DNA from: a virus
Virus genome (UHGV): UHGV-0041029
Length of the DNA stretch: 15,376 nt
Direction: 5' to 3' (one strand)
Shown here piece by piece: positions 1-15,376 of this stretch. Positions within the stretch are counted from its first letter, which is position 1; every line of letters starts with the position of its first letter. The position numbers and the translations under genes were made by a program. The notes under the pieces are model-generated. The model saw only the letters and a program-made list of their open reading frames with translations, did not search any database and had not been told where the DNA came from.

Positions 1-49
1 CACATGTAGGTTAGCCTCTTACGTGCCGAAAGGCAAGGAGAAGCAGGCT

Positions 50-205
50 ATGAAGCAGCAAAAGGCGATGTTAATCGCCCTGATCGTCATCTGTTTAACC
101 GTCATAGTGACGGCACTGGTAACGAGGAAAGACCTCTGCGAGGTGCGAATCCGAACCGGCCAGACGGAGGTCGCTGTCTTCACAGCTTACGAACCTGAGG
201 AGTAA
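50..205 (+). CDS. hokD: Hok/Gef-family type I toxin (small membrane-depolarising peptide), HokD/RelF-like
   Basis: 51-aa product MKQQKAMLIALIVICLTVIVTALVTRKDLCEVRIRTGQTEVAVFTAYEPEE has the Hok signature: basic N-terminus, single TM helix, conserved Cys and acidic tail. The ORF track starts at 23 but the Hok-length protein begins at the internal ATG at 50. Assignment is from recollection of the Hok family, not a search. Confidence 0.8.
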   Translation: MKQQKAMLIALIVICLTVIVTALVTRKDLCEVRIRTGQTEVAVFTAYEPEE

Positions 206-274
206 GAGACCCGGCGAGGGAGAAATCCCTCGCCACCTCTGATGTGGCAGGCATCCTCAACGCACCCGCACTTA

Positions 275-300
275 ACCCGCTTCGGCGGGTTTTTGTTTTT
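275..300 (+). terminator. Rho-independent terminator after the hok-like gene
   Basis: Stem acccgc (275-280), loop ttcg, stem gcgggt (285-290), followed by tttttgttttt. A perfect 9-bp hairpin with a GAAA tetraloop (213-234, ggcgaggga-gaaa-tccctcgcc) lies just upstream, resembling hok mRNA 3' fold-back elements. Confidence 0.65.
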
Positions 301-421
301 ATTTTCAACGCGTTTGAAGATCTGGACGGTGCCGGAATAGAATCAAAAATACTTAAGTAGCGCGCAGGGATAAGAGGGATGGTCCCTTAAAGGGGAGAGC
401 TAATTATCCGGAAGGATTCTG

Positions 422-673
422 ATGATGAACATCGAAGAACTGCGTAAAATTTTTTGTGAAGATGGCCTCTATGCTGTGTGCGTTGAAAATGGAAATCTTG
501 TTAGTCATTACCGCATTATGTGTTTGCGAAAGAATGGGGCTGCGTTAATTAATTTTGTGGATGGTCGAGTGACAGACGGATTTATCTTGCGCGAAGGTGA
601 GTTTGTCACTTCATTACAGGCACTGAAAGAGATCGGAATAAAAGCAGGCTTTTCAGCTTTTGCAGAAGAATAA
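422..673 (+). CDS. rem: Small prophage protein of unknown function, Rem-like
   Basis: 83-aa ORF with purine-rich region (ggaagg) upstream of ATGATG. Length and position (downstream of hok, upstream of the DUF968 gene) match my recollection of rem in the Qin prophage. Function unknown. Confidence 0.6.
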   Translation: MMNIEELRKIFCEDGLYAVCVENGNLVSHYRIMCLRKNGAALINFVDGRVTDGFILREGEFVTSLQALKEIGIKAGFSAFAEE

Positions 674-739
674 ACTCATCTACAATCTTGCGCGGGGCTG
701 AACTCCCGCTGAGTAACACCGTGCCACCGGAGAAAACCG

Positions 740-1018
740 ATGGCACGCAACGTAAAATATTACAATTCTGATAATTCGCCCGTTCTTGCCTGCACGCACG
801 AGCGGTATTCTCACGCATTCAAGTCTGAATGGTTCCAGCACCCTCCATGCACTGAAGAGCAGGCTGAATGGATAATTCAGTGTTACCGCAGGCGCGGATA
901 CGAGGTTAAGAAAGCTCTTAGTCTCGACTACCGTCACTGGATAATCTCAGTCAGATTGCCTTACTCCGAACGCCCACCGCGTCCGTCCCGTACATTCCAG
1001 CAACGCATCTGGAGGTAA
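740..1018 (+). CDS. Hypothetical protein (92 aa), translationally coupled to the downstream DUF968 gene
   Basis: GGAG at 727-730 sits 9 nt before the ATG at 740. The stop at 1016-1018 is one base before the GTG start of the next gene, and a GGAGG inside its 3' end serves that gene as RBS. No family recognised. Confidence 0.4.
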   Translation: MARNVKYYNSDNSPVLACTHERYSHAFKSEWFQHPPCTEEQAEWIIQCYRRRGYEVKKALSLDYRHWIISVRLPYSERPPRPSRTFQQRIWR

Positions 1019-1019
1019 C

Positions 1020-2069
1020 GTGCGGGTATTACTTCGACCTGTTCTGGTACCGGAACTCGGGCTGGTGGTCGTTAAGCCGGGCCGTGAATCCATGCCGGTA
1101 TTCCACAATACCCGGGTACTGGTGGAGCCGGAACCGAAAAGCATGCGTAATCTGCCGTCCGGGGTCGTTCCTGCCGTTCGCCAGCCGCTGGTGGAAGACA
1201 AAACATTGCTGCCGTTTTTCAGTAACGCACGGGTAATTCGTGCTGCTGGTGGTGCTGGTGCATTGTCTGACTGGCTGTTGCGCCATATTAAATCCTGCCA
1301 GTGGCCACACGGCGATTATCATCACAGCGAAACCGTTATTCACCGTTATGGTACCGGCGCAATGGTGTTGTGCTGGCACTGCGACAACCAGCTGCGTGAC
1401 CAGACATCCGAATCACTCGAGCAACTTGCTCATCAAAACCTGTCAGCATGGATGATTGACGTCATCGGTCACGCAATAAGCGGTACGCAGGAGCGTGAAT
1501 TATCTCTGGCTGAATTATCCTGGTGGGCGGTCCGCAATCAGGTGGCGGACGCGCTACCGGAAGCGGTATTACGTCGCTCGCTGGGATTACCAGCGGAAAA
1601 AAACTGCTCGGTGTACCGCGAAAGCGACATCGTACCGGGAGAGCAGACCGCCACCAGCATATTGAAACAGCGCACAAAAAATCTTGCACCGTTGCCTCAC
1701 GCCCACCAGCAACAAAACCCATCACAGGAAAAGACGGTGGTAAGCATCACCGTTGATCCAGAGTCTCCGGAATCTTTCATGAAGCTGCCTAAACGTCACC
1801 GTTGGGTTAAGGAGAAATACACACGCTGGGTTAAGACACAGCCGTGTGCTTGCTGCGGTATGCCAGCCGACGATCCGCATCATCTGATTGGTCACGGGCA
1901 GGGCGGAATGGGAACCAAAGCACATGATCTCTTTGTGTTGCCTTTGTGCAGAAAGCATCACGACGAGTTGCATACGGATACCGTGGCATTTGAAGAGAAG
2001 TATGGCTCCCAACTGGAGCTGATTTTTCGATTTATCGATCGCGCGCTGGCAATTGGTGTGCTGGCCTAA
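1020..2069 (+). CDS. ydfU: DUF968-family prophage protein with C-terminal HNH-like Cys/His motif, YdfU-like
   Basis: 349-aa ORF with GTG start. C-terminus carries CACCG...[10 protein letters not shown]...[17 protein letters not shown], a CxxC plus His-rich pattern typical of HNH/DUF968 proteins. Length matches Qin ydfU as recalled. Confidence 0.75.
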
Positions 2070-2086
2070 TTTTGTGGAGTAAGTTG

Positions 2087-2464
2087 ATGCGTGATATTCA
2101 GATGGTTCTTGAGCGTTGGGGGGCATGGGCGGCTAATAATCATGAAGATGTGACCTGGTCGTCCATTGCCGCCGGTTTTAAGGGATTAATTCCTTCAAAA
2201 GTAAGATCTCGTCCGCAATGCTGTGACGATGACGCGATGATCATTTGTGAATGTATGGCTCGCCTGAAAAAAAACAACAGCGATTTACATGATTTATTGG
2301 TGGACTATTATGTCGGCGGCATGACTTTTATGGCGCTTGCACGTAAGCATGGGCGATCTGATTGTTGGGTTGGCAGGATGCTCCAGAAAGCTGAGGGCGT
2401 AGTGGAGGGCATGCTGATGGTGTTGGATCTCCGATTGGAGATGGATGCTGATTGTTCGAAATAA
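2087..2464 (+). CDS. Putative late-gene antitermination protein Q-like (short Phage_antitermQ-type)
   Basis: 125 aa from the ATG at 2087, with GGAG 7 nt upstream; the track ORF starts at TTG 2072. Position directly downstream of DUF968 and upstream of a terminator and the lysis genes is the canonical Q slot. Cys cluster ([12 protein letters not shown]) and a helix-turn-helix-like C-terminus. Family assignment is by recollection only. Confidence 0.55.
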
Positions 2465-2562
2465 TTAAAGGAAAAGTTGCTGTCTGATTTTCATTAGTCT
2501 AACATTTTAAATGTTGGAATCGCAACGTAGTTATTATCATATAACAGCTTGTTTCCTGATTT

Positions 2563-2593
2563 AGCCAGCCTCCCCAAAGGCTGGTTTTTTTCT
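2563..2593 (+). terminator. Rho-independent terminator downstream of the Q-like gene (candidate tR'-like)
   Basis: Stem ccagcc (2565-2570), loop tccccaaa, stem ggctgg (2579-2584), then a run of 8 T. Lies between the convergent Q-like and lipocalin genes. The - strand reading lacks a U tract, so it acts mainly on + strand transcripts. Confidence 0.65.
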
Positions 2594-2619
2594 AATAAGT
2601 ATCATTTCGGGTGGGGATT

Positions 2620-3144
2620 TTATTGTTTAACCCATAATAGTTCATTGACATTGAATCCCAACTTTTGAGCGGTACGCACATAGTCTGCTTTTACATTATC
2701 TGGAATAGTTTGGGTCCTTGCCAGAATCCATAGGTATTCTCTGTTCGGACCACTGATAAGAGCATACTTATACTCATCATCCAGCTTGATTACATTATAA
2801 CCACCATAGAAGGGGCCAAAAAACGAAACTTTCAACGCTGCAGTTTTAGTATCTCCAGTAAAGTATGCTTTACCTTCGCTCTCGCTCCATTTGTTTTTCG
2901 TTGGATCGTATCCACGGTTAAGTACGCGAATCCCTCCGTCGTTCCGTTTTTCATAAGTAGCGCTGATCTGTTCCAGACCACGTTCGAACCAGTTCTCGAG
3001 GCGAGCTATTTCATACCATTTTCCGAGGTAGCGGTTGGCGTCAAAATTTGTAATCGGCTGCACACCTTTAGGTGGTGTCGGGGCCTTACATGCTATAAGA
3101 GTGAAAGAGAGTGCAATGCCAGTCAACACAGGCCATAACTTCAT
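2620..3144 (-). CDS. blc: Bacterial lipocalin Blc-like outer-membrane lipoprotein
   Basis: 174 aa. N-terminal signal with lipobox (FTLIAC-K). Lipocalin motifs shared with E. coli Blc: NFDANRYLGKWYEIAR, GKAYFTG, AALKVSFFGPFYGGYNVI, YLWILART. AGGA lies 8 nt upstream of the ATG on the - strand. Confidence 0.8.
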   Translation of the reverse strand: MKLWPVLTGIALSFTLIACKAPTPPKGVQPITNFDANRYLGKWYEIARLENWFERGLEQISATYEKRNDGGIRVLNRGYDPTKNKWSESEGKAYFTGDTKTAALKVSFFGPFYGGYNVIKLDDEYKYALISGPNREYLWILARTQTIPDNVKADYVRTAQKLGFNVNELLWVKQ

Positions 3145-3336
3145 AATAAATCCTGTACTTTTGATAGTTGAGAGTAAGTATGAAAGATAGATGAGTACGA
3201 CCGATCACTTAAAGAACTTTCCTACTATATTAGGAATAGTCAATAACAGAAAAATTGTCAGTGATGAAGCCAGAAAGGCAATTTAGTCCGTGCACTACAA
3301 AGTTTATGTGTTAATGAATTAGTCAAGGGGGAGGAA

Positions 3337-4296
3337 ATGATAAAAAAACCTGTGATTGGGATCAGCGGTTGTTTGGGCGGTTCTGCTGTTCGTTTTGATG
3401 GTGGTCACAAAAGAGATGACTTTTTAATGGACAAATTAGTGGAATGGGTAACATTCAGACCAGTATGTCCGGAAATGGCTATAGGGCTGCCAGTTCCGCG
3501 TCCTGCTCTACGACTTGTGCGCTCGAAGCAAGGAAATATACGGATGTGTTTCAGCCACGACCAGAATGAGGATGTGACAGAGAGAATGACAGAGTTTAGT
3601 CGTTCTTATATGGACAAATTAAAGGATGTATCGGGGTTTGTGGTTTGTGCTAAATCTCCCAGCTGTGGCATGGAGCGCGTGCGTGTCTATGATGAAAATG
3701 GTAATCGAGGTCGTAAAGATGGAGTGGGACTATTTACGAGCACTTTGATGGAAAAGTTTTCCTGGCTACCGGTTGAAGAGGATGGGCGATTACATGATCC
3801 AGTGCTTCGTGAGAATTTTATTGAAAGAGTTTTTGCTTTGCATGAGCTCAATCACCTTTACAAGGAGAAATTATCAAGAAGAGAGTTATTAGCTTTTCAT
3901 AGTCGTTATAAGCTTCAGTTGTTGGCGCATAGCCAGGCAGGCTATAAAGATATGGGACCATTTGTGGCTGCAATACACGAGTGGGCGGACCTTGAATCAT
4001 ACTTTGAGGTGTATCGTGATAATCTGATGGCGATTCTCAAAAAACCAGCATCACGTAAAAATCACACGAATGTGCTGATGCATATACAGGGGTATTTTAG
4101 TAATTACTTAAGTACACGCCAGCGTAAAGAGTTGAGCGAGGTTATACTTAACTATCGCTTTGGCACATTGCCTCTTCTTGCGCCGTTGACTCTGCTGAAG
4201 CATTATCTGGGTGAGTATCCTAATGATTACTTGCTTACACAGAATTACTTCGATCCCTATCCGGAAGAACTGGCTCTAAGACTGATGGTGAATTAA
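3337..4296 (+). CDS. DUF523 (TudS-like thio-nucleobase desulfidase domain) fused to DUF1722 (YbgA-like); RudS-like putative tRNA 4-thiouridine desulfidase
   Basis: 319 aa, strong RBS gggggagg before the ATG. N-terminal half has Cys in the pattern expected for the TudS [4Fe-4S] ligands (GISGC at 12, PVCPE at 44, VVCAKSPSCG at 104/110). C-terminal half resembles YbgA/DUF1722. Domain calls are by recollection. Confidence 0.65.
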   Translation: MIKKPVIGISGCLGGSAVRFDGGHKRDDFLMDKLVEWVTFRPVCPEMAIGLPVPRPALRLVRSKQGNIRMCFSHDQNEDVTERMTEFSRSYMDKLKDVSGFVVCAKSPSCGMERVRVYDENGNRGRKDGVGLFTSTLMEKFSWLPVEEDGRLHDPVLRENFIERVFALHELNHLYKEKLSRRELLAFHSRYKLQLLAHSQAGYKDMGPFVAAIHEWADLESYFEVYRDNLMAILKKPASRKNHTNVLMHIQGYFSNYLSTRQRKELSEVILNYRFGTLPLLAPLTLLKHYLGEYPNDYLLTQNYFDPYPEELALRLMVN

Positions 4297-4702
4297 CTGT
4301 ATGCGATATCATCTGAAAGTGATGAGTTCCTGTATGCAGGATATTTACAATCGTAAAAACTACGCTATGATGCTCATAGTATCAGTTTTTATAAAAATCC
4401 TGTTCACGCTAAAGAAAACATTGAGATGCAATTTAATGTTGGTAAACATACCAGCCCCAAACGATTTTATTCAATCTGTTTTTATATGAAGATATTTCAA
4501 GTGAATATTAAGAGCATATAATATTATTATTGCACGCAGCTATTATAATATAACAGATTAGTTTAATGATTTGTTTTTTGTGAGTTAAACACATGGTTTT
4601 ATAGTTGTGATGCAATGAGATTTTCCTTATTGTTGAACTGGCGAATATTGATTTTCCACCTATACTTACCTGGTGTAACCCCAATGATATCAGGTGGATA
4701 AT

Positions 4703-5416
4703 ATGCCATACATATGTTCTATCATTTTGGTGTTGAACTCGTTTGGTGTCCGAATTGGTAAAGAAGATATTTTGTTTAAAAAAGGAAATGCTGTCCTCAT
4801 TGAATACAATTTAAAAGATCTTTTTTCGTCAAATACAGATCATCTAATGATCGTAGATGTTGAGGAGAAAACAGTTAATGATTTCTTTAAAAACTACACA
4901 CTCTCACCTTTTTCTGTAAGAAGGTTTTATCCGTCATACTTGATAGTAGAATGTGAAGATTTTTCATTGTTAAAGAACTTGGTTGCATGCTTGAATTGTG
5001 ATAGCAAAACCGTGGATGTAGTTAGAAATCAAATATCACTTGCATGTCTTGCTGTCTTATCTTCAGAGAAAATAGTGCAAAGTTTTTTGTTCGGAAGTCT
5101 TAATAGCTTAGGTTGTAAAGTTAAGGCTATTATTCACTCGGATATCTCAGCGTCATGGAGACTTTGTGATATATCTTCAAGATTATATATGAGCGAGAGT
5201 TTGTTAAAAAGAAAATTAAAAGACGAAGGATTATCGTTTAGTAAATTAATTCTTGAAGAACGAATGATGATGGCGCAAAGATTATTGATCTACAGTAACC
5301 ATACTGTCGGCAAGGTGGCGGGAATATGCGGGTATGACAATGCATCATATTTTGTAAGTGTTTTTAGAGGATATTTTGGTGTGCCTCCGCACCAATATTT
5401 ATCAAGATTTTCTTAG
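4703..5416 (+). CDS. AraC/XylS-family transcriptional regulator, GadX/AppY/YdeO-like
   Basis: C-terminal double-HTH AraC signature (WRLCDISSRLYMSESLLKRKLKDEGLSFSKLI ... GYDNASYFVSVFRGYFGVPPHQY). Gene and upstream 400 bp are visibly AT-rich. Start is probably the ATG at 4703 (aggtgg upstream); the track ORF starts at GTG 4694. Confidence 0.8.
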   Translation: MPYICSIILVLNSFGVRIGKEDILFKKGNAVLIEYNLKDLFSSNTDHLMIVDVEEKTVNDFFKNYTLSPFSVRRFYPSYLIVECEDFSLLKNLVACLNCDSKTVDVVRNQISLACLAVLSSEKIVQSFLFGSLNSLGCKVKAIIHSDISASWRLCDISSRLYMSESLLKRKLKDEGLSFSKLILEERMMMAQRLLIYSNHTVGKVAGICGYDNASYFVSVFRGYFGVPPHQYLSRFS

Positions 5417-5482
5417 AAGATATGATGTGATGGCATTTTATAAAGTTATTTTTTGAAGTGTAAGATTATACGATATTTTTAG

Positions 5483-5516
5483 CTACGCCAGAATAATTGC
5501 TGGCGTTTTTCTTTTT
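5483..5516 (+). terminator. Rho-independent terminator after the AraC-family gene
   Basis: Stem acgccag (5485-5491), loop aataattg, stem ctggcgt (5500-5506), followed by tttttcttttt. Confidence 0.6.
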
Positions 5517-5606
5517 GAATAGATGTTCGGGCCTTACGCTAATGTAACTTCTTTCCTTCTTCGAACCAAACCGTGTACACCATCCGTTATCTGCGGAGGT
5601 GAGGCT

Positions 5607-5822
5607 ATGAAATCCATGGATAAGTTAACAACGGGCATCGCCTACAGCACCTCTGCAGGCAGTGCTGGCTACTGGTTTTTACAGTTGCTCGATAAAGTCA
5701 CGCCCTCACAGTGGGCGGCAATAGGTGTATTGGGTAGTCTGGTATTTGGCATGCTGACGTATCTGACAAATCTTTATTTCAAGATTAAAGAAGACAGGCG
5801 TAAGGCTGCGAGAGGAGAGTAA
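5607..5822 (+). CDS. essQ: Class II holin / pinholin (phage 21 S21-like) with dual-start motif
   Basis: 71 aa beginning MKSMDK (Met1 and Met4, the S21 antiholin/holin dual start), with ggaggtgagg RBS. Two TM segments and a basic C-terminus ([13 protein letters not shown]). The track ORF at 5523 is an in-frame N-terminal extension without RBS support. Confidence 0.85.
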
Positions 5823-5826
5823 TCCA

Positions 5827-6134
5827 ATGACTCAAGACTATGAACTGGTTGTGAAAGGAGTCCGTAATTTTGAGAATAAAGTTACGGTAACTGTAGCCTT
5901 ACAGGACAAAGAACGCTTTGACGGTGAAATTTTTGGCCTGGATGTCGCCATGGACCGTGTTGAAGGAGCTGCGCTGGAGTTTTATGAGGCAGCAGCCAGA
6001 ATGAGCGTCCGGCAAGTCTTCCTGGAAGTAGCAGAAAAATTGTCAGAAAAAGTTGAGTCTTATCTGCAGCATCAGTACTCCTTTAAGATTGAAAATCCTG
6101 CCAATAAGCACGAGCGTCCTCATCATAAATATCT

Positions 6135-6138
<4 letters not shown>
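5827..6138 (+). CDS. ydfR: Lysis-cassette protein of unknown function, YdfR-like
   Basis: 103 aa, RBS gagaggag. Wedged between holin and endolysin, with its stop overlapping the endolysin start (ATGA). Length and position match ydfR of Qin as recalled. Confidence 0.7.
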
Positions 6139-7162
<1,024 letters not shown>

Positions 7163-7407
7163 ATTAATATTAAATCGGATTATTTTTAGCGCTGAATGTG
7201 AAATTTAAATAAAAAGGACTCTTCCATGAGTCAAAATCCTTGAAATCTTAAGGGTAAGATAAAAGGTCATTAGACAGAATGACACGTTTTATTAATAAAT
7301 AAAGCTATTGTTTCATTCGTGTGTTTTTCTTTACAAAAGTAATCCTTGCTATGGTTGGTTAATCATGCGTTAATGGTGTTCTGGTTTGTTACAAAATTAT
7401 CTGAAGC

Positions 7408-7430
7408 AGTCATTGTTATAATTTTATTAT
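7408..7430 (+). promoter_or_regulatory. Candidate extended -10 promoter (TGnTATAAT) for the cold-shock gene with long 5' UTR
   Basis: tgttataat at 7414-7422 inside an AT-rich leader about 100 nt before the cspI-like start. CspA-family genes typically have long structured 5' UTRs. No convincing -35 seen. Confidence 0.3.
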
Positions 7431-7522
7431 TTGTACCTCTTGAGATTTCCTTGTTGGTTTTTCTCTCTGATATTTTTTTTCGGACCATTCTGCCCAAGGG
7501 CTAACTTCTTCAAAAGGTAATA

Positions 7523-7738
7523 ATGATGTCTAACAAAATGACTGGTTTAGTGAAATGGTTTAACCCTGAAAAAGGTTTTGGTTTCATCACGCCGAAAGAT
7601 GGTAGCAAAGATGTGTTTGTGCATTTCTCAGCTATTCAGAGCAACGATTTCAAAACGTTAACTGAGAATCAGGAAGTCGAATTTGGTATTGAGAACGGAC
7701 CTAAAGGCCCTGCAGCTGTTCATGTAGTGGCACTTTGA
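7523..7738 (+). CDS. cspI: CspA-family cold-shock protein
   Basis: [23 protein letters not shown]...VFVHFSAIQ carries the RNP1/RNP2 cold-shock domain motifs. ATGATG start, so the true start may be 7526 giving 70 aa. Symbol given from Qin-like context (followed by ynfN-like and gnsB-like genes); paralogue identity is not certain. Confidence 0.85.
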
Positions 7739-7942
7739 GGTAGAAAATATTACAAACCATATTCACTTTAGATGCCCGTGTTGCCATGGTTCTCAGTATA
7801 GAACATCATCTTTTGATGTTTCTGACAGAAATCCTTTCGGGGCAAAATGTATCTTTTGTAAATCAATGATGATTACATTTGATAATATTTCACAATACTT
7901 AAATGTTAGCCATCTGTCGTTAGATTTAAGAAAGTGAAAATG

Positions 7943-7966
7943 AAGGCTCCTTCGGGAGCTTTTTTG
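7943..7966 (+). terminator. Rho-independent terminator
   Basis: Stem ggctcc (7945-7950), loop ttcg, stem ggagct (7955-7960), followed by tttttt. Confidence 0.55.
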
Positions 7967-8084
7967 CTTAGTGTCTAGTCGATGGATACTCACATATTAC
8001 GGTAACATTATGAAAAAAATAATAGTTTTTTTTAACTCTGAACCAGCAATGGTAGTGCCAGTGATGACCGGAGTTAACACCATC

Positions 8085-8240
8085 ATGCGTGAATATCCAA
8101 ATGGCGAAACAACACACCTCACTGTAATGGCTGCAGGGTTTCCATCTCTGACCGGAGATCATAAAGTCATTTATGTAGCAGCGGATCGACATGTAACTTC
8201 AGAAGAAATTCTGGAAGCAGCAATGAGACTCTTGAATTGA
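8085..8240 (+). CDS. ynfN: Small prophage protein, YnfN-like
   Basis: 51-aa product from the ATG at 8085, with GGAG 10 nt upstream. Sits between the cspI-like and gnsB-like genes as in Qin. The same frame is open back to 7971, so a longer product cannot be excluded. Confidence 0.45.
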   Translation: MREYPNGETTHLTVMAAGFPSLTGDHKVIYVAADRHVTSEEILEAAMRLLN

Positions 8241-8412
8241 TTTGATTCTAATGCATTGATAATAAATGATAATCATCTTTATCTGTTTGTGTGAAATTTA
8301 GACCGTCGTATGTTGATTATTGCGATGTTTCATCTTATCTTTTATACGTTTGCTCCATATAATTGACACTACTGTGTACCAGGACAGTCATAACAGACTA
8401 AAAGAGGAAATG

Positions 8413-8586
8413 ATGAACATTGAAGAGTTAAAAACAAAAACAGAAGCAGATATTTCTGAATATATAACAAAAAAAATCATTGAGCTTAAGAAAAAGACCG
8501 GGAAAGAAGTTACCAGTATCCAGTTTACTGCACGGGAAAAAATGACTGGTCTTGAAAGCTATGATATCAAGATTGATTTAATCTAG
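8413..8586 (+). CDS. gnsB: GnsA/GnsB-family small protein
   Basis: 57-aa product MNIEELKTKTEADISEYITKKIIELKKKTGKEVTSIQFTAREKMTGLESYDIKIDLI matches the GnsA/GnsB family. aagagg RBS 5 nt before the ATG at 8413; the track ORF from 8320 is an unsupported extension. Confidence 0.8.
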   Translation: MNIEELKTKTEADISEYITKKIIELKKKTGKEVTSIQFTAREKMTGLESYDIKIDLI

Positions 8587-8650
8587 CATGTTTATAGTAT
8601 TAGCATCAATTTCTCATCAGATGCTATTCAACAATACAAATTACCCATAA

Positions 8651-8676
8651 ACCTCGTTTTTACGGGGTTTTGTTAT
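8651..8676 (+). terminator. Rho-independent terminator after the gnsB-like gene
   Basis: cctcgt-tttt-acgggg hairpin (one G-U pair) followed by ttttgtt. Confidence 0.45.
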
Positions 8677-8881
8677 ATTTAAACATTACCGAATAGATAT
8701 AAATCTCGATTGTCGATGGTATTGGTTGTGTGACAATACCTAGTCTTTCCGGTATGCCTGAAGAGAATACAAACGACAGATTATGTAAGGGAAACGCGCT
8801 GAAACTTTCACTCTTTCATGCTGAGTGATTTGACGTTATATTTTTAGCCGCAAGTGAAGAGCAAACGAATGGAGCGACAAA

Positions 8882-9088
8882 ATGCATAAAGATCAATACA
8901 CTGATGCCCCCTCCCAGGAGCAGGTTCGTGTAAAAACTATGCTTAATAGCACCATTTCGATGGGTTACCCGGATGTTGTAATTGCATGTATAGAACATCA
9001 AGTATCTCTGGAAGCATTCAGGGCAATTGAGGCCGCGTTAGTAAAGCACGATAAGAATACGAAGGATTATTCCCTGGTGGTTGACTGA
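8882..9088 (+). CDS. Hypothetical protein (68 aa)
   Basis: ORF with GGAG 7 nt upstream of the ATG. No family recognised. Confidence 0.4.
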
Positions 9089-9439
9089 TCACCATAACTG
9101 CTAACCATTCTGACCATTTCACAAGTGACAGAGTCAATATCGTATTCTGTCACTGTAAGGCTAATACAGTACTGCAATTCAACTACAGCAATGCCTCGTA
9201 TTTAGGTGAATTTACAATATCGTCCAGTTCGGATGCCGGCTGCATTTCTGAAGATAAGGCATTTCGGTTCGCGTATTTTCCCCTCATGCTCGTCAGTCCT
9301 GCGCGTAGTAAGAAACAGGACACTCACACTAATTTGTGTGGGCATGCTGTGATGTCCTTCTGAATTATCCCCATGCCATTATGTAAAGCTCTGTTTCAGA
9401 TGCTCGTCACGGTTGTCAGGCTGTCGGGTCCTCCCAGTG

Positions 9440-9480
9440 GGGGTCCCTGCCACGGGGCGGGAGCGTCGCGGAAAAAGACT
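9440..9480. other. Candidate cos site (cosN-like, lambda-type cohesive end)
   Basis: ccacgGGGCGGGAGCGTCGCGG (9451-9471) resembles the lambda cosN context acgGGGCGGCGACCTCGCGG. It lies about 195 bp upstream of the small-terminase start, close to the roughly 190 bp spacing in lambda as I recall it. The lambda sequence is quoted from memory. Confidence 0.4.
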
Positions 9481-9649
9481 AGTTTTTGCATTTCCATGGC
9501 GGCGGCAGCATGTTTGGTAATTTATTGATAATTAAAAGTTATTTCTCTTTTCACCTGTACAATATTTTTTCTCCCTGTTATTAGACCAGTTTGCAATTAA
9601 TTGAAATATATAAATAAACCTGATTTTCACCTGCCAGATGGAGTTGCTT

Positions 9650-10177
9650 ATGTCAAATGTGAGCGGGATCGGTGATGCTTATTACTGGAGTGTTTTTAAA
9701 ATCGCCGAGGCCTTTGGGCTTCACCGGGACACAGTAAAAAAACGGCTCCTCGCGGCCAACACTCCTGTGGCTGCGACTGTCAGGGGGAACCCCGTTTACG
9801 CCCTGCAGCATGTCGGGCCCGCCCTGTTTAGTGTGAAGCATGAGGCAGCAGACTCTGTTCATGATCCATCCCGTATGGAGCCGAAAGAGAGAAAAGACTG
9901 GTACCAGTCTGAAAATGAAAGGATCAAGCTGGAAAAGGAGCAGCGAAAACTCATCCCAGTTGATGAAGTAGTCATCGTCTATTCGTCCATGAGAAAGGCT
10001 GTCGTCCAGGTTCTGGAGACAATTCCGGATGTTCTTGAACGCGATTGCGCCCTGACTCCTCAGGCCGTCGGCGTTGTACAGCAGGCCATTGATGACCTGC
10101 GATACACTCTTCAGGAAAAATCCTACGAGGCTTGTGCTGCTGAATTAATTCCTGATGAGGAAGGAGAGAGTCTCTAG
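9650..10177 (+). CDS. Terminase small subunit (Nu1-like DNA-packaging protein)
   Basis: About 175 aa from the ATG at 9650 (GGAG 6 nt upstream). N-terminal HTH-like segment (YYWSVFKIAEAFGLHRDTVKKRL), acidic C-terminus, immediately upstream of and coupled to the large terminase. Family call from architecture and context. Confidence 0.65.
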   Translation: MSNVSGIGDAYYWSVFKIAEAFGLHRDTVKKRLLAANTPVAATVRGNPVYALQHVGPALFSVKHEAADSVHDPSRMEPKERKDWYQSENERIKLEKEQRKLIPVDEVVIVYSSMRKAVVQVLETIPDVLERDCALTPQAVGVVQQAIDDLRYTLQEKSYEACAAELIPDEEGESL

Positions 10178-10185
10178 GAGGAATA

Positions 10186-11919
10186 ATGGGTTTTTCATCA
10201 GCCCGAAATTTGGGAAGGGACATATCGGCAGGATTTTCCCCACCACGTCGCATGCCGATTTCGGAGGCTGTTAAAAAATTCATGCGTGTTCCCAAGGGGG
10301 CTGGTAACTCGGTGCCATGGGATCCTGAACTGACACCCTACATCATTGAGCCCATGAACTGCCTGGCATCGCGTGAATACGATGCGGTGATTTTTGTTGG
10401 TCCTGCGCGAACAGGGAAGACCATTGGTCTGATCGATGGATGGATTGTCTATACCATCGTTTGCGATCCTTCGGACATGCTCGTTGTGCAGATGACCGAA
10501 GATAAGGCCCGCGAGCATTCTAAAAAGCGCCTCGACAGAACGTTCAGAAGCAGTGCGGCGGTAAAGAAAAGAATGAGTCCACGTCGTAACGACAATAATG
10601 TCCATGATAAGACGTTCAGGGATGGCTCGTTCCTTAAAATTGGTTGGCCCTCGGTCAACATTATGTCGTCGTCGGATTACCGGTTTGTCGCCTTAACCGA
10701 TTACGACCGTTTTCCGGAGAATATCGACAGCGAGGGTGATGGTTTCTCCCTAGCCTCAAAACGTACCACCACATTTATGTCCGCCGGGATGACTCTGGTG
10801 GAGAGCTCGCCGGGACGTGACATCTGCGACAGCAAATGGCGACGTAAGTCGCCTCATGAAGCGCCACCGACGACTGGTATTCTTTCCCTTTACAATCGTG
10901 GTGACCGCCGCCGCTGGTACTGGCCATGTCCGCACTGCGGTGAATATTTTCAGCCAGCTATGGATGCCATGACCGGCTACCGTAATGAACCGGATCCCTT
11001 TAAAGCCAGTGAGGCGGCGTATCTACTTTGCCCGCACTGCAGCGGCATTATCACTGCGGAGAAAAAGCGTGAGCTCAATAGTGCAGGAGTCTGGTTACGT
11101 GAAGGTCAGGTCATTGATCGTAACGGCAACGTTTCCGGTGAACCGCGCCGCTCCCGTATCGCCAGTTTCTGGATGGAAGGGCCAGCTGCTGCGTATCAGA
11201 CCTGGGCGCAACTGGTTTACAAATTACTGACTGCAGAACAGGAGTATGAAGCGACAGGAAGCGAAGAAACACTCAGGGCGGTTATCAACACCGACTGGGG
11301 ATTACCTTATCTTCCTCGTGCCAGCATGGAGCAACGAAAAAGTGAACTGCTTGAGCAGCGGGCAGAGCCAGTTCCTTCCCGCAGTGTTCCGGATGGCGTT
11401 AATTTCCTTGTGGCGACAGTGGATGTGCAGGCGGGACGTCATCGCCGTTTTGTGGTTCAGGTAACGGGCTATGGCAGCCGTGGCGAACGCTGGATTATTG
11501 ATCGTTACAACATCACGCAGTCATTGCGCAGTGACTGCGACGGGGAGAGCCAGCGAATTGATCCGGCCAGCTATCCGGAAGACTGGGATGTCCTGCTGGG
11601 GAGCTGGTTTTACGACGAACTGACGTATGAAGAGCGGAGCAGTGACGGGAAATGGAGTAAGCCGGGTCGCGGTGCCAACGAAGCTTTTGACCTGATGGTG
11701 TATGCCGAGGCGCTGGTCATTCTGCATGGATACGAAAAGATCCGCTGGCCGGATGCACCGGAGTGGGCGAGCCGGGAAACCTGGCTGGAGTGTGTCCCGG
11801 ACAGTACCGAACCGTCACCCTCACCGGAGCCGGTATCCACGCCTGTTAAAAAACAAAAACGGAAGAAAACAGTAACTGACGATGTTAACCCCTGGCTGAC
11901 TTCCGGAGGATGGTTATGA
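10186..11919 (+). CDS. Terminase large subunit, lambda gpA family
   Basis: 577 aa. Walker A P-loop (VIFVGPARTGKT), Cys-rich motifs (WYWPCPHCGEYF and LLCPHCSGI) comparable to the lambda gpA CPHC region, and a C-terminal nuclease-type region. Confidence 0.85.
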   Translation: MGFSSARNLGRDISAGFSPPRRMPISEAVKKFMRVPKGAGNSVPWDPELTPYIIEPMNCLASREYDAVIFVGPARTGKTIGLIDGWIVYTIVCDPSDMLVVQMTEDKAREHSKKRLDRTFRSSAAVKKRMSPRRNDNNVHDKTFRDGSFLKIGWPSVNIMSSSDYRFVALTDYDRFPENIDSEGDGFSLASKRTTTFMSAGMTLVESSPGRDICDSKWRRKSPHEAPPTTGILSLYNRGDRRRWYWPCPHCGEYFQPAMDAMTGYRNEPDPFKASEAAYLLCPHCSGIITAEKKRELNSAGVWLREGQVIDRNGNVSGEPRRSRIASFWMEGPAAAYQTWAQLVYKLLTAEQEYEATGSEETLRAVINTDWGLPYLPRASMEQRKSELLEQRAEPVPSRSVPDGVNFLVATVDVQAGRHRRFVVQVTGYGSRGERWIIDRYNITQSLRSDCDGESQRIDPASYPEDWDVLLGSWFYDELTYEERSSDGKWSKPGRGANEAFDLMVYAEALVILHGYEKIRWPDAPEWASRETWLECVPDSTEPSPSPEPVSTPVKKQKRKKTVTDDVNPWLTSGGWL

Positions 11920-11960
11920 ATCAGAATGATATTGAAGCCATGATTCAGCGTTATGGGTGA
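11916..11960 (+). pseudogene. 5' stub (14 codons) of the gene that followed terminase, truncated by deletion
   Basis: ATG overlaps the terminase stop (ATGA), typical coupling for the next head gene. The frame stops after MNQNDIEAMIQRYG, where tape-measure homology begins in another frame. Confidence 0.3.
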
Positions 11961-12798
11961 TCAGCAGCGGCAGCGATATCAGGTACAACTGAGTCTTCGC
12001 CAGAAATACCAGCAACAGCTGGAGCAGTTGAGGCGGGATAGTGAGCAGAAAGGAATATATAACACGGATGACTACAGAAAGGCCGAGCAGGCGCTGACGG
12101 AGAGCCTGAACCGACAACTGAATGAGAATCGCCGTTACTGGCAACAGCTTGAAGTTGTGCAGGGTAACTGGAAAAACGGAGTCCTGCGTGCATTTCAGAA
12201 TTTTACCGTGGATGCAGATAATACGGCAGGAACAGCAGAACAGGTGTTCTCGTCAGCCTTCAGCAACATGGGAAATGGCCTAGCAACTTTTGTCACTACC
12301 GGCAAACTCAATTTCAAATCCTTCACCTCTTCTGTGCTGTCAGATATGGCGAAAATCCTGGCGCAGGCAACCATGATGAAATCGATAAAAGGGATTGGCA
12401 GTGTACTGGGATTTGATCTCAGCAGCCTTTCCCTGAATGCCAATGGGGGGATTTATCAGTCTGCTGATTTGAGTCGTTACAGTGGCACGGTGGTTAACCG
12501 TCCGACGTTTTTTGCTTTTGCAAAAGGCGCGGGTGTGATGGGGGAAGCGGGACCTGAAGCCATTCTGCCACTGCGTCGTGGTGCTGACGGTAAGCTGGGG
12601 GTTGTGGCGGATATTGGTGGTTCAGGTATGGCGATGTTTGCCCCGCAGTACAACATCGAGATCAATAACGATGGCACGAACGGGCAGATAGGTCCGGCTG
12701 CCCTGAAGGTGGTTTATGACCTCGGGAAAAAAGCGGCAGCGGACTTTATGCAACAGCAGGCCCGTGATGGTGGTCGGTTAAGTGGAGCATATCGGTAA
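11953..12798 (+). pseudogene. C-terminal fragment (about 280 aa) of a lambda-like tail tape measure protein (gpH)
   Basis: The C-terminus (NIEINNDGTNGQIGPAALKVVYD...ARDGGRLSGAYR) parallels the lambda gpH C-terminus (VINNDGTNGQIGPAALKAVYD...MRDGGLFSGGGR). The stop overlaps the gpM start (TAATG). No N-terminal 500+ aa present. Confidence 0.8.
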
Positions 12799-13127
12799 TG
12801 GAGACGTTTCACTGGAAAGTGCGCCCGGATATGAATGTGGTATCAGAGCCGAAAGTGGTGACAGTGAAGCTGGGCGATGGTTATGAACAGCGTCGTGCGG
12901 CGGGACTGAATAACCAGTTGTCGATTTACAGCGTGACGATACGTGTTCGTAAATGTGAACACCCATCTTTAAAAGCCTTTCTGGAACGGCACGGTGGCGT
13001 CCGCGCATTTCAGTGGACGCCACCTTATGACTGGAAGCCGATCAGGGTGGTTTGTCGTAAATGGTCGGCAAGCGTGGGGGCGCTGTGGGTAACCATAACG
13101 GCAGATTTTGAACAGGTCGTGGCATAG
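12798..13127 (+). CDS. Minor tail protein M (lambda gpM homologue)
   Basis: 109 aa, METFHWKVRPDMNVVSEPKVV...EFQWTPPYDWKPIRVVCRKWSA...DFEQVVA, collinear with lambda gpM and the same length. Confidence 0.85.
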   Translation: METFHWKVRPDMNVVSEPKVVTVKLGDGYEQRRAAGLNNQLSIYSVTIRVRKCEHPSLKAFLERHGGVRAFQWTPPYDWKPIRVVCRKWSASVGALWVTITADFEQVVA

Positions 13128-13136
13128 GAGGCCCTG

Positions 13137-13409
13137 ATGCAGGATATTTCACAGGAAACACATCATGAGACGACACGCCTCACTCAGTCAGCCCAGGTGG
13201 TGCTCTGGGAAATCGATCTGACCGAGGTAGGCGGGGATCGCTACTTTTTCTGTAATGAGCAGAACGAAAAAGGTGAGTCTGTCACCTGGCAGAGTCGGCA
13301 GTATCAGGCCTATCCCATTCAGGGGAGTGGATTTGAGATGAACGGCAAGGGCAGTGCTGCCCGTCCGACACTGACGGTCTCTAACCTGCACGGCATGATC
13401 ACCGGGATG
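13137..13409 (+). pseudogene. N-terminal fragment (about 91 aa) of minor tail protein L (lambda gpL homologue)
   Basis: MQDISQETHHETTRLTQSAQVVLWEIDLTEVGGDRYFFCNEQNEKGESVTWQSRQYQAYPIQGSGFEMNGKG...TLTVSNLHGMITGM matches the lambda gpL N-terminus. Homology stops near 13409; the open frame runs on to 13523 through unrelated sequence, which is gpJ read out of frame. Confidence 0.8.
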
Positions 13410-13876
13410 GGAATACCAACATCGCCGGTGTCACGGTGGTGTTCCGGGCTGGTGAGCAGGAGCAGACTCCGCCGGAGGGATTTGAATCCTCCGGCTCCGA
13501 GACGGTGTTGGGTACGGAAGTGAAATACGACACGCCGATCACCCGCGCCATCACGTCGGCAAACATCGACCGTCTGCGCTTTACCTTCGGTGTGCAGGCA
13601 CTGGTGGAAACCACCTCAAAGGGGGACCGGAATCCGTCGGAAGTTCGCCTGCTGGTTCAGATACAGCGTAATGGTGGCTGGGTGACGGAAAAAGACATCA
13701 CCATTAAGGGCAAAACCACCTCGCAGTATCTGGCCTCGGTGGTGGTGGATAACCTGCCGCCGCGCCCGTTTAATATCCGGATGCGCAGAATGACGCCGGA
13801 CAGCACCACAGACCAGCTGCAGAACAAAACGCTCTGGTCGTCATACACCGAAATCATCGATGTGAAACAGTGCTAT
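13409..13876 (+). pseudogene. Internal fragment of tail tip/host-specificity protein J (lambda gpJ, about residues 55-220)
   Basis: NTNIAGVTVVFRAGEQEQTPPEGFESSGSETVLGTEVKYDTPITR...[18 protein letters not shown] is near-identical to the lambda gpJ N-terminal region as recalled. It lacks the gpJ start and the C-terminal 900 or so residues. Confidence 0.8.
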
Positions 13877-14309
13877 TCCAGCTGGCTTCGTGGCTGTTTT
13901 CAACAGTGATGAGTCATCGTGGCATCTCGTTGAAGATCATCGGGGTAAAACGGTTTATGACGTGGCTTCCGGCGACGCGTTATTTATTTCTGAACTCGGC
14001 TCATTACCGGAAAATGTCACCTGGTTATCCCCGGAAGGGGAGTTTCAGAAGTGGAACGGCACAGCCTGGGTGAAAGATGCAGAAGCAGAAAAACTATTCC
14101 GGATCCGGGAGGCGGAAGAAACAAAAAACAGCCTGATGCAGGCAGCGAATGAGCATATTGCGCCACTTCAGGATGCTGTAGATCTGGAAATCGCAACGGA
14201 GGAAGAAAACTCGTTGCTGGAAGCCTGGAAAAAGTATCGGGTGTTGCTGAACCGTGTTAATACAACAACTGCACCGGATATTGAATGGCCAGTAGCACCT
14301 ATAGGGTAA
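13875..14309 (+). pseudogene. C-terminal fragment of tail fibre assembly protein (Tfa family)
   Basis: [67 protein letters not shown]... matches Tfa proteins (TfaQ/TfaE-like). Homology starts abruptly at the gpJ junction, so the N-terminal 50-60 residues are missing. An in-frame GTG/ATG could still allow a truncated product. Confidence 0.75.
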
Positions 14310-14392
14310 ATTCGTAATGATTACCTAAATACGTTATTCTTTTGTTCAAAAAGTGATTTTGCTATAGGTAGGGAGTATGTTCTTGGATTAAG

Positions 14393-14425
14393 AATAAAAA
14401 ATCGCCATGAAAGAGCTTCATGGCG
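14393..14425 (-). terminator. Rho-independent terminator for a leftward (- strand) transcript
   Basis: Perfect 9-bp hairpin cgccatgaa-agagc-ttcatggcg (14403-14425). On the - strand it is followed by a T tract (+ strand aataaaaaat, 14393-14402); on the + strand no U tract follows. Confidence 0.5.
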
Positions 14426-14902
14426 AGTACATAAACGTACAAAATGTGATGAAAGTAGAGTGGCGTAAGCCACTATATTAAGATATGACAATAGCGAACA
14501 AAAGTAAATAACATTTTATGGACGTTTAATTGTTAATTATAAAAACTAGAGTGCCCGATATTGTTTATCTTGCTTTAAAATAATGTACTCAAACCAAATT
14601 TTTGAGCTAAAAGCTCAAATAATATAAATGCAATGATAATGTTTAATAAGACAATTAGCTTGCTTTGTATTTTCATTTCGGAATACTGTTAAGTAACTTT
14701 GATGACCCTAACAATAGATCGGAATTTTCTTAGAGTCAATGGTCACTGTTTTTGTTTGCAAAGCAAATGTTTTGGTGGTTATAAGTTTTCCTAATATAGT
14801 CACCTATGCAACTTGTTCCGTGTGGAGATTAAAGGTTAAAATTTAATGCGAAGATGGAATTATAATATATTTTTTTATAATTAATTTAACCTTAACATCG
14901 TT

Positions 14903-14997
14903 GCTGGCGGCATGGAAGAAATATCGGGTCTTGCTGATATCGTGTTGGCACTTCCTTAGTGCGGTTATCGAATGGCCAGCTGTACCTGTGGGGTAAA
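14903..14997 (+). repeat. Degenerate second copy of the tfa 3' end (direct repeat of about 14217-14310)
   Basis: gcatggaagaaatatcgggtcttgctg...atcgaatggccagctgtacctgtggggtaa aligns with gcctggaaaaagtatcgggtgttgctg...attgaatggccagtagcacctatagggtaa at the end of the tfa fragment. The middle part is divergent. Confidence 0.5.
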
Positions 14998-15128
14998 AAC
15001 TTTATATGGATGCTATTTTTATAATAGCTGGTAAAAACTGGCCGAACTGAAATTCACTGTTGATAAAAAAGATGTGTTTGAGTGTATGTCATTGTTTTCT
15101 TAATGGAATCCACTAGAATGCAGCGAAT

Positions 15129-15326
15129 TTAAGAAGGTGGGTTTTTATTGGAATATAAACTACAATAATGCTCAACTCGTTCGTAGAATTGTTTTTTCTT
15201 ATTTCTTGGAATGCTAACCATTATATGCATTATGGGGGCGATACTTCCTGATAATTTACATGATGCATACATTGAAGCAATAAATTCAATATCATTGTCA
15301 TCAAAGTTAAAGCTTTCTCCGTCCAT
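15129..15326 (-). CDS. Hypothetical small protein (65 aa) in AT-rich DNA
   Basis: Only an ORF in an AT-rich region. No RBS or family support checked, and AT-rich DNA yields chance ORFs less often but not never. Confidence 0.2.
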   Translation of the reverse strand: MDGESFNFDDNDIEFIASMYASCKLSGSIAPIMHIMVSIPRNKKKQFYERVEHYCSLYSNKNPPS

Positions 15327-15376
15327 TTCAATTCCTTATGTGTTTGGCACAACTGATGCTGTATCCCATGAGAATT

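Follow-up and report, generated by a model that had tools for sequence, protein, structure and literature searches.

A stretch of 15,376 nucleotides from the virus genome UHGV-0041029 (hereafter, the window) carries the beginning of a minor tail protein L gene that runs directly into the interior of a tail tip gene J, and this raises the question of how two genes that are separated by K and I in intact relatives came to be joined, and why at that particular base. Gene content and sequence matches identify the window as a defective lambdoid prophage that occupies the Qin locus of Escherichia coli, on the ydfJ side. In a whole-window megablast against several E. coli chromosomes, positions 1–11573 and 13874–15376 are 99.7–99.8% identical to ydfJ-adjacent Qin remnants, such as that of strain EF7-18-58, and the contigs that carry the same prophage with its four deletion scars run on into ydfJ, ydfI, ydfZ and rspR. 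Common to the window and Qin are hokD, rem, ydfU, the Q antiterminator, the essD/ydfR/rrrQ/rzpQ group, cspI, ynfN, gnsB and a tfa gene adjoining ydfJ, and both Qin (with its relatives Rac, DLP12 and e14) and the window are lambdoid prophages in which most morphogenetic genes have gone through deletions. In contrast to Qin, the variant in the window retains a DUF1441-type small terminase gene, a shortened large terminase gene, the intact gene M and the gene fragments H', L' and J'. In related prophages at this locus, too, genes for a DUF1441 small terminase and a large terminase are found along with tfa, and ydfJ comes next.

Positions 2620–5416 form a cargo block that the window has in common with related Qin variants: a lipocalin gene on the reverse strand, a YbgA-family gene and a gene for an AraC-type regulator, located after the Q antiterminator and before the lysis genes. 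In an ENA metagenome scaffold (L258, positions 10240–16387), a cluster of integrase, excisionase, exonuclease and dicB genes stands to the right of the four-scar remnant instead of ydfJ, a layout that suggests an inversion or another rearrangement at the prophage end. The apparently intact prophage of the same type in isolate 362 (loci L007/L008) served as the reference map, and three intact relatives (L004, L008 and L011, the last from strain 504838), each of which has L, K, I and J in order, were used for the comparisons below.

The L–J junction and the fragments that it joins

Window positions 11952–13410 align without gaps to the H–M–L region of the intact relatives, with identities of 98.8% (L004), 98.4% (L011) and 97.5% (L008), and positions 13406–13875 match their J genes at 99.8% over 470 nt (L011), 97.2% (L004) and 96.2% (L008); J' is also 99.8% identical to the J gene that strain ZYB62 carries in its Qin prophage. 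In the alignment, the match to L is exact up to 13410 and the match to the closest J allele is exact from 13406, this allele, that of L011, reading ...GGACAGTGATGGGAATACC at the joint and being equal to the window from 13406 on. The breakpoint thus lies within a 5-bp overlap, in accordance with the sequence-only reading of this DNA, which had held it to be resolvable to a few bases, and alignment with the L–K–I–J region gave no continuous homology to a single gene across 13395–13425. No bases are inserted at the joint, where every base can be assigned to L or J, and GATGG is present as a single copy, with both flanks contiguous and co-oriented in L004, L008 and L011, which is the configuration of a microhomology deletion. 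A check for direct repeats at the breakpoint, which the same reading had called for, returned either this 5-bp repeat or an imperfect one that matches at 8 of the 10 bases around the joint (ACCGGGATGG versus ACAGTGATGG). Under random joining, a microhomology of at least 5 bp has a chance of 0.0046, and the perfect microhomology would drop to 2 bp if the J gene of the true parent had GAG, and not GAT, at codon 56. Among longer direct repeats flanking the deleted segment, none fits the endpoints; longer imperfect repeats lie inside the interval and are unused. An IS-mediated deletion was considered and rejected, since neither an insertion sequence nor an IS end is found at the joint.

The missing stretch measures 1,943 bp with respect to L011, 1,948 bp with respect to L004 and 1,949 bp with respect to L008, and comprises codons 92–232 of L, the whole of K and I, and codons 1–55 of J. 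The comparison with these three relatives confirms that the C-terminus of L, K, I and the N-terminus of J have been lost, as had been proposed, and shows that the first estimate of the fusion point (L codon 91, J codon 55 or so) was right to one or two codons. On the left side, the frame that opens at 13137 encodes gpL residues 1–91 (...TLTVSNLHGMITGM) and then diverges (BLASTP against lambda-type L, E = 7e-55), its last L codon being the ATG of M91 at 13407–13409, which agrees with the end near 13409 given for the gpL-like frame. On the right side, the frame from 13409 encodes gpJ residues 57–212, with 152 identities in 156 positions (97%) to lambda-type J, and the earlier claim that a different frame carries the gpJ interior after the breakpoint is borne out. 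L codons start at 13137+3n and J codons at 13406+3n and, thus, the two genes are out of frame; the microhomology falls on J codon 56, and sequence specific to J begins with codon 57.

Homology to full-length gpL (about 232 aa) stops at residue 91, where 37 wrong-frame J residues follow, so that L' lacks the C-terminal half of the protein. Identity to J opens at nucleotide 166, which leaves J' without the N-terminal residues 1–55 and the start codon of gpJ, and stops at nucleotide 635 (codon 212), from where tfa sequence takes over, which leaves it without the central and C-terminal domains of gpJ and, with them, the receptor-binding end. A J' ORF of 129 aa is called after the fusion ORF, and PF24801 (FNIII-A_GpJ) is recorded for this called ORF. 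L' and J' are pseudogene fragments, neither of which can make a functional tail protein, and the prophage has thereby lost its tail-tip module. Compared with the tail-tip genes of lambda, L' and J' are clear orthologues and the H–M–L...J order is kept, the match to lambda gpL being 67% over the BLASTP alignment, in which the real match is confined to residues 1–91. Unlike lambda, the remnant lacks K, I and the tail-tip assembly parts of L and J, and a working tail module is impossible. The features of the region are collected in Table 1.

Table 1. Positions of the genes, gene fragments and joint discussed in the text, in window coordinates.
Feature	Position	Strand	Description	Evidence
Large terminase gene	10186..11919	+	In-frame 366-bp internal deletion, GCTG overlap at 11595–11598; product shortened from 699 to 577 aa	
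H'	11952..12798	+	3' part of the tape measure gene	PF09718 Tape_meas_lam_C
M	12798..13127	+	Minor tail protein gene, 109 aa, intact, directly upstream of L'	PF05939; colinear with intact relatives
L'	13137..13410	+	5' portion of gene L (minor tail protein), codons 1–91 and first base of codon 92	DNA identity, BLASTP, PF05100 Phage_tail_L on identical product
Fusion ORF	13137..13523	+	128 aa: 91 L residues and 37 wrong-frame J residues (GIPTSPVSRWCSG...)	Stop at 13521–13523
Junction microhomology GATGG	13406–13410	+	Present in both parents, crossover inside	Three-way alignment with L011, L004, L008
J'	13406..13875	+	Internal piece of the tail tip gene J, J nucleotides 166–635, codons 56–212	Frame differs from that of L'
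tfa'	13874..14309	+	Tail fibre assembly gene without its 5' end	PF02413 Caudo_TAP

Occurrence of the junction and further scars of the prophage

An exact look-up of the fusion protein returned 24 contigs, and NCBI nr lists the protein, seen on 13 contigs, under the name 'phage minor tail protein L [Escherichia coli]'. Eight contigs were examined, six from NCBI draft genomes, one from an ENA metagenome and one from a Logan assembly, and all of them have the junction 61-mer together with the four-scar structure, with 99.86–99.98% identity over 8–10 kb and 1–14 differences among them. Since the same junction is found in at least eight independently assembled public contigs, it is not an assembly artefact, and the L–J junction is a real feature of this prophage at exactly the position given. 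A chimeric contig joining two prophage copies might have been suspected, because many E. coli genomes have several copies of L and J and the joint occurs in none of 5,426 complete E. coli genomes, nor did an exact 27-mer across it match GTDB species representatives or JGI metagenome contigs. Nevertheless, the 61-mer and the 10-kb structure recur across contigs from various projects and assemblers, and a 5-bp overlap is far below any assembler k-mer, which reduces the probability of a chimera practically to nothing. The four-scar combination is likewise absent from the 5,426 complete genomes searched, and the L–J scar marks a narrow E. coli lineage.

A search of genome contigs with a 17-mer J anchor was unspecific and gave mostly chance matches and lambda-derived sequence in unrelated species. 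Near-identical lambda L–J sequence was seen in unrelated assemblies (L028, L048, L057, L104, L131 and others, among them assemblies of Neobacillus, Chromatium and Paenibacillus), all copies being 96.17% identical to the J fragment of the window, and it is probably lambda DNA contamination.

With respect to the isolate 362 reference, the window has four internal deletions, located in the large terminase gene, between W and H, between L and J, and between J and tfa. The deletion in the large terminase gene is easily missed, as the ORF stays open to its native stop codon. At the W–H scar, codon 13 of a W-like gene is joined to H through a TAT overlap at 11952–11954, with about 9,064 bp missing with respect to L008, and at the J–tfa scar, J nucleotide 635 is joined to the interior of tfa at 13875. 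At least four scars in one prophage fit a stepwise prophage decay, a kind of decay that is well documented in general (PMC6379469).

Several of these ends are also found elsewhere. The H-side end of the W–H scar is common to a junction between a portal gene (nucleotide 192) and H, both reading CGT^TATGGG (the caret marks the joint), and this portal–H junction, found in FDAARGOS_1077 and in 10 or more further complete genomes, is much commoner than the W–H form; the latter may have arisen by a secondary deletion of 359 bp between CGTTAT repeats. Strain A21005-2, considered as a possible source of a third left partner at this H-side end, breaks 70 nt away. The J635 end also occurs in the Rac remnant of FDAARGOS_1337, where tfa resumes 15 bp earlier, between TATT repeats, and strain MB06233 ends J 2–3 nt past 635 with a different partner. 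Moreover, strains are found with every one of the four possible combinations of the J166 and J635 scars. In two sister Qin remnants (L002 at 13571/13572 and L003 at 13574/13575, equivalent to 11573 in the window), the large terminase gene is broken at the same TA (..CCGGCCAGCTA^), and the right partners differ, being the 3' end of stf in one and a capsid protease gene in the other. Some likenesses were also spotted post hoc among the end sequences: the retained right-hand ends GATGGG (J166), TATGGG (H) and GTATGG (a third H junction, in strain 14EC033, L005 at about 4150) resemble each other, the retained left-hand ends in the large terminase gene and at J635 both finish in GCTA, and ACAGTG precedes both J anchors. 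All of these may be due to chance.

Recurrent use of J nucleotide 166

The base at which J begins in the window is also the J boundary of junctions with six further left partners, namely Nu1/nohQ, ynaK, gpZ, two portal types and gpFI, the last with a boundary that reads 165, because its partner has a T there as well. With the window counted in, J nucleotide 166 has seven left partners, and one fixed endpoint with variable partners is the pattern of a deletion hotspot. The best E. coli match to the junction query was the Qin prophage of ZYB62, in which a Nu1-type small terminase gene (nohQ) is joined at the same J base, and this match ran 3 bases beyond the J boundary. Two more complete genomes have the nohQ–J166 joint, on J alleles that lie 3–4% apart, and one further such joint was found among 133 matches. 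The ynaK–J166 joint occurs in 30 complete genomes and, when J nucleotides 169–206 were searched for in an unselected sample of 120 metagenome contigs, the sole truncated J started at 166 and was joined to ynaK of Rac. The reciprocal product, in which J would be kept up to nucleotide 165, was found in none of 120 matches of an IMG/VR sample.

The 41-residue out-of-frame tail of the fusion ORF was also used as a phmmer probe against 1.84 billion protein cluster representatives. Because intact J closes the frame of the probe with a TGA at nucleotides 140–142, any ORF that bears the tail must enter J via a junction within about 20 codons after it. The probe detected five proteins, four of them with other N-terminal partners (gpZ-like, a lambda-type portal, a second portal type and gpFI-like), and the tail begins at the same codon in all four. 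At the DNA level, these joints read ...aagctggg^GATGGG, ...atgcggga^GAGGGG, ...gcagcgga^GAGGGG and ...aatgcgct^GATGGG. The partner parents all have G or GA at the crossover, with overlaps of 5, 3, 3, 2, about 1, 2 and 2–3 bp, and the shared G or GA is compatible with a 2-bp crossover and equally with minimal microhomology. Furthermore, several of the J166 genes, including the portal–J and FI–J ones, are otherwise full-length, as expected for one-step deletions from intact prophages. The sharing of the breakpoint is partly a matter of ascertainment, given that BLAST ranks junctions with the same anchor first; the observations on L002/L003, L006, the metagenome sample and the protein probe were not selected on the anchor.

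Around J166, no hairpin or cruciform is predicted (DNA fold z = −1.3, with a weak 9-nt inverted repeat and a 67-nt spacer). Inspection by eye against consensus sequences gave no convincing match to Chi, Ter/Tus, matS, IS1 or IS10 ends, a Pin/Din-invertase site, the gyrase consensus or a type I-E PAM geometry, and no att-like sequence was recognised by eye. Literature searches found no description of a J166 hotspot. With these data, J165/166 (ACAGT^GA(T/G)GGGAATACC) might be proposed, tentatively and with rather more doubt than confidence, as a sharply defined, one-sided deletion hotspot of lambdoid J genes, where a site-specific agent sets a DNA end that is then joined to variable upstream positions. 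The end could stem from nicking or breakage of the DNA, from arrest of a replication fork, from a cut of the topoisomerase type or from a defence nuclease, and it would be joined upstream through 1–5 bases of homology, so that head and tail genes could be erased in one step. If J165/166 is such a hotspot, the L–J scar would be the smallest of the series known so far, and the H-side end TATGGG may be a second site of this kind.

Origin of the scar and its meaning

Positions 13406–13410 are, very probably, the scar of a deletion of about 1.95 kb in the tail operon of a defective Qin-locus lambdoid prophage, the ends of which were joined at the GATGG microhomology. Co-oriented flanks that are contiguous in relatives, a single copy of the 5-bp repeat and the lack of filler or IS sequence constitute the signature of microhomology-mediated illegitimate recombination and, from this anatomy of the scar, slipped mispairing, template switching or end joining is the likely mechanism. 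The segment from L codon 92 to J codon 55 was lost and the ends were joined at GATGG with nothing inserted, and the event was probably begun by something that fixed a DNA end at J165/166, as nicking, breakage or the arrest of a replication fork would do. The choice of the J-side end is non-random, and the recurrence of J166 is unexpected under random joining; thus, a simple microhomology picture is incomplete.

Deletions that depend on short homology, by illegitimate recombination or slipped mispairing, are known in E. coli, and the L–J deletion resembles them in being bounded by a short direct repeat of which one copy is kept without filler. However, in contrast to plain microhomology joining, its J end is common to at least six other deletions, to the nucleotide. 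Two further known systems are comparable. Bierne, Ehrlich and Michel reportedly described deletion hotspots at arrested replication forks (terB/Tus) in EMBO J in 1991, while the b deletions of lambda that are promoted by Int start at attP, a site-specific recombinase acting on secondary sites. As in the J166 set, one endpoint is fixed to the nucleotide in both and the other is variable, the two being joined through 2–10 bp of homology. Nevertheless, J166 differs from both systems in that no Ter-like, att-like, Din-invertase-like, Chi or IS-end sequence was recognised there in a comparison by eye. The L–J deletion is in itself ordinary, an instance of a well-known kind, and its unusual point is the reused J end.

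Another possible origin for part of this recurrence is that the L–J and Nu1/nohQ–J joints are not independent, one having been made from the other by a second event across the older scar. The window and ZYB62 are identical from 13403, that is, also over the 3 bases (CGG) to the left of the J boundary, and carry the same J allele, with 1 mismatch in 473 positions; pure breakage at 166 does not explain the shared CGG, which hints that one junction was derived from the other. Intact nohQ reads CTCGACGGGATCCCC and has 6 bp in common with the window joint and only 3 bp with intact J, so that the straddling microhomology would have been CGGGAT (nohQ against a window-type joint) or CGGGATGG (L against a nohQ–J joint). 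A like pattern is found at the W–H scar, where the window and the common portal–H junction agree in CGT, and straddling overlaps of 6–8 bp would explain why identity runs on leftwards past these two anchors, by CGG in one case and by CGT in the other. However, the small terminase of the window is of the DUF1441 type and not nohQ, so that direct descent needs an extra module swap, and J of ZYB62 reaches to about nucleotide 1070, whereas that of the window ends at 635. The portal–J and FI–J joints, lying in otherwise full-length J genes, are those expected from one-step deletions, and a coincidence of 3 bases has a chance of 1/64 and could be luck. Altogether, a nested origin of the two joints seems unlikely.

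It could also be considered that the L and J sides came from two molecules, a different prophage, an incoming phage or a transduced fragment having supplied one of them by homology-facilitated illegitimate recombination, in which one homologous crossover would be combined with one microhomology joint. The best relative does differ between the two sides, being L004 for L and L011 together with ZYB62 for J, and the four combinations of the J166 and J635 scars require recombination or recurrence. Recombination of this type has been documented in E. coli at 3x10^-10 per recipient (PMC3240628), and an exchange of DNA between temperate phages and defective prophages does take place (PMC3945230). Such a frequency is very low, though, L011 alone has both sides, with the identities given above and at the right spacing, so that one parent is enough, and a homologous crossover in J would have restored L–K–I–J; an origin from two molecules seems somewhat less probable still than a nested one. 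Much further down the scale comes a fusion gene that functions and is under selection, or a site of programmed frameshifting, which the annotation of the 128-aa ORF by gene callers and the 129-aa J' ORF with FNIII-A_GpJ after it might bring to mind. The two parts are out of frame and the 37-residue tail is the wrong frame of J, L is without its C-terminal 141 residues, J' has lost the N terminus and over 900 residues at the C-terminal end, and not only K and I but also most head and tail genes (all those between W and the 3' part of H) are absent, all of which makes a functional product very improbable.

With a one-step microhomology deletion as the preferred origin, the L–J junction alone shows the loss of tail-tip genes in the Qin prophage of one E. 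coli lineage and is useful mainly as a lineage marker, and the gene annotated as 'minor tail protein L' is a pseudogene, which is a warning for annotation. The reused J end has a wider bearing. Prophage decay is usually pictured as random deletion followed by a filter of selection and, if it is true that seven deletions end at one base, part of this decay would be sequence-directed, and the agent that cuts or stalls DNA at J166 would be identifiable directly in a lysogen.
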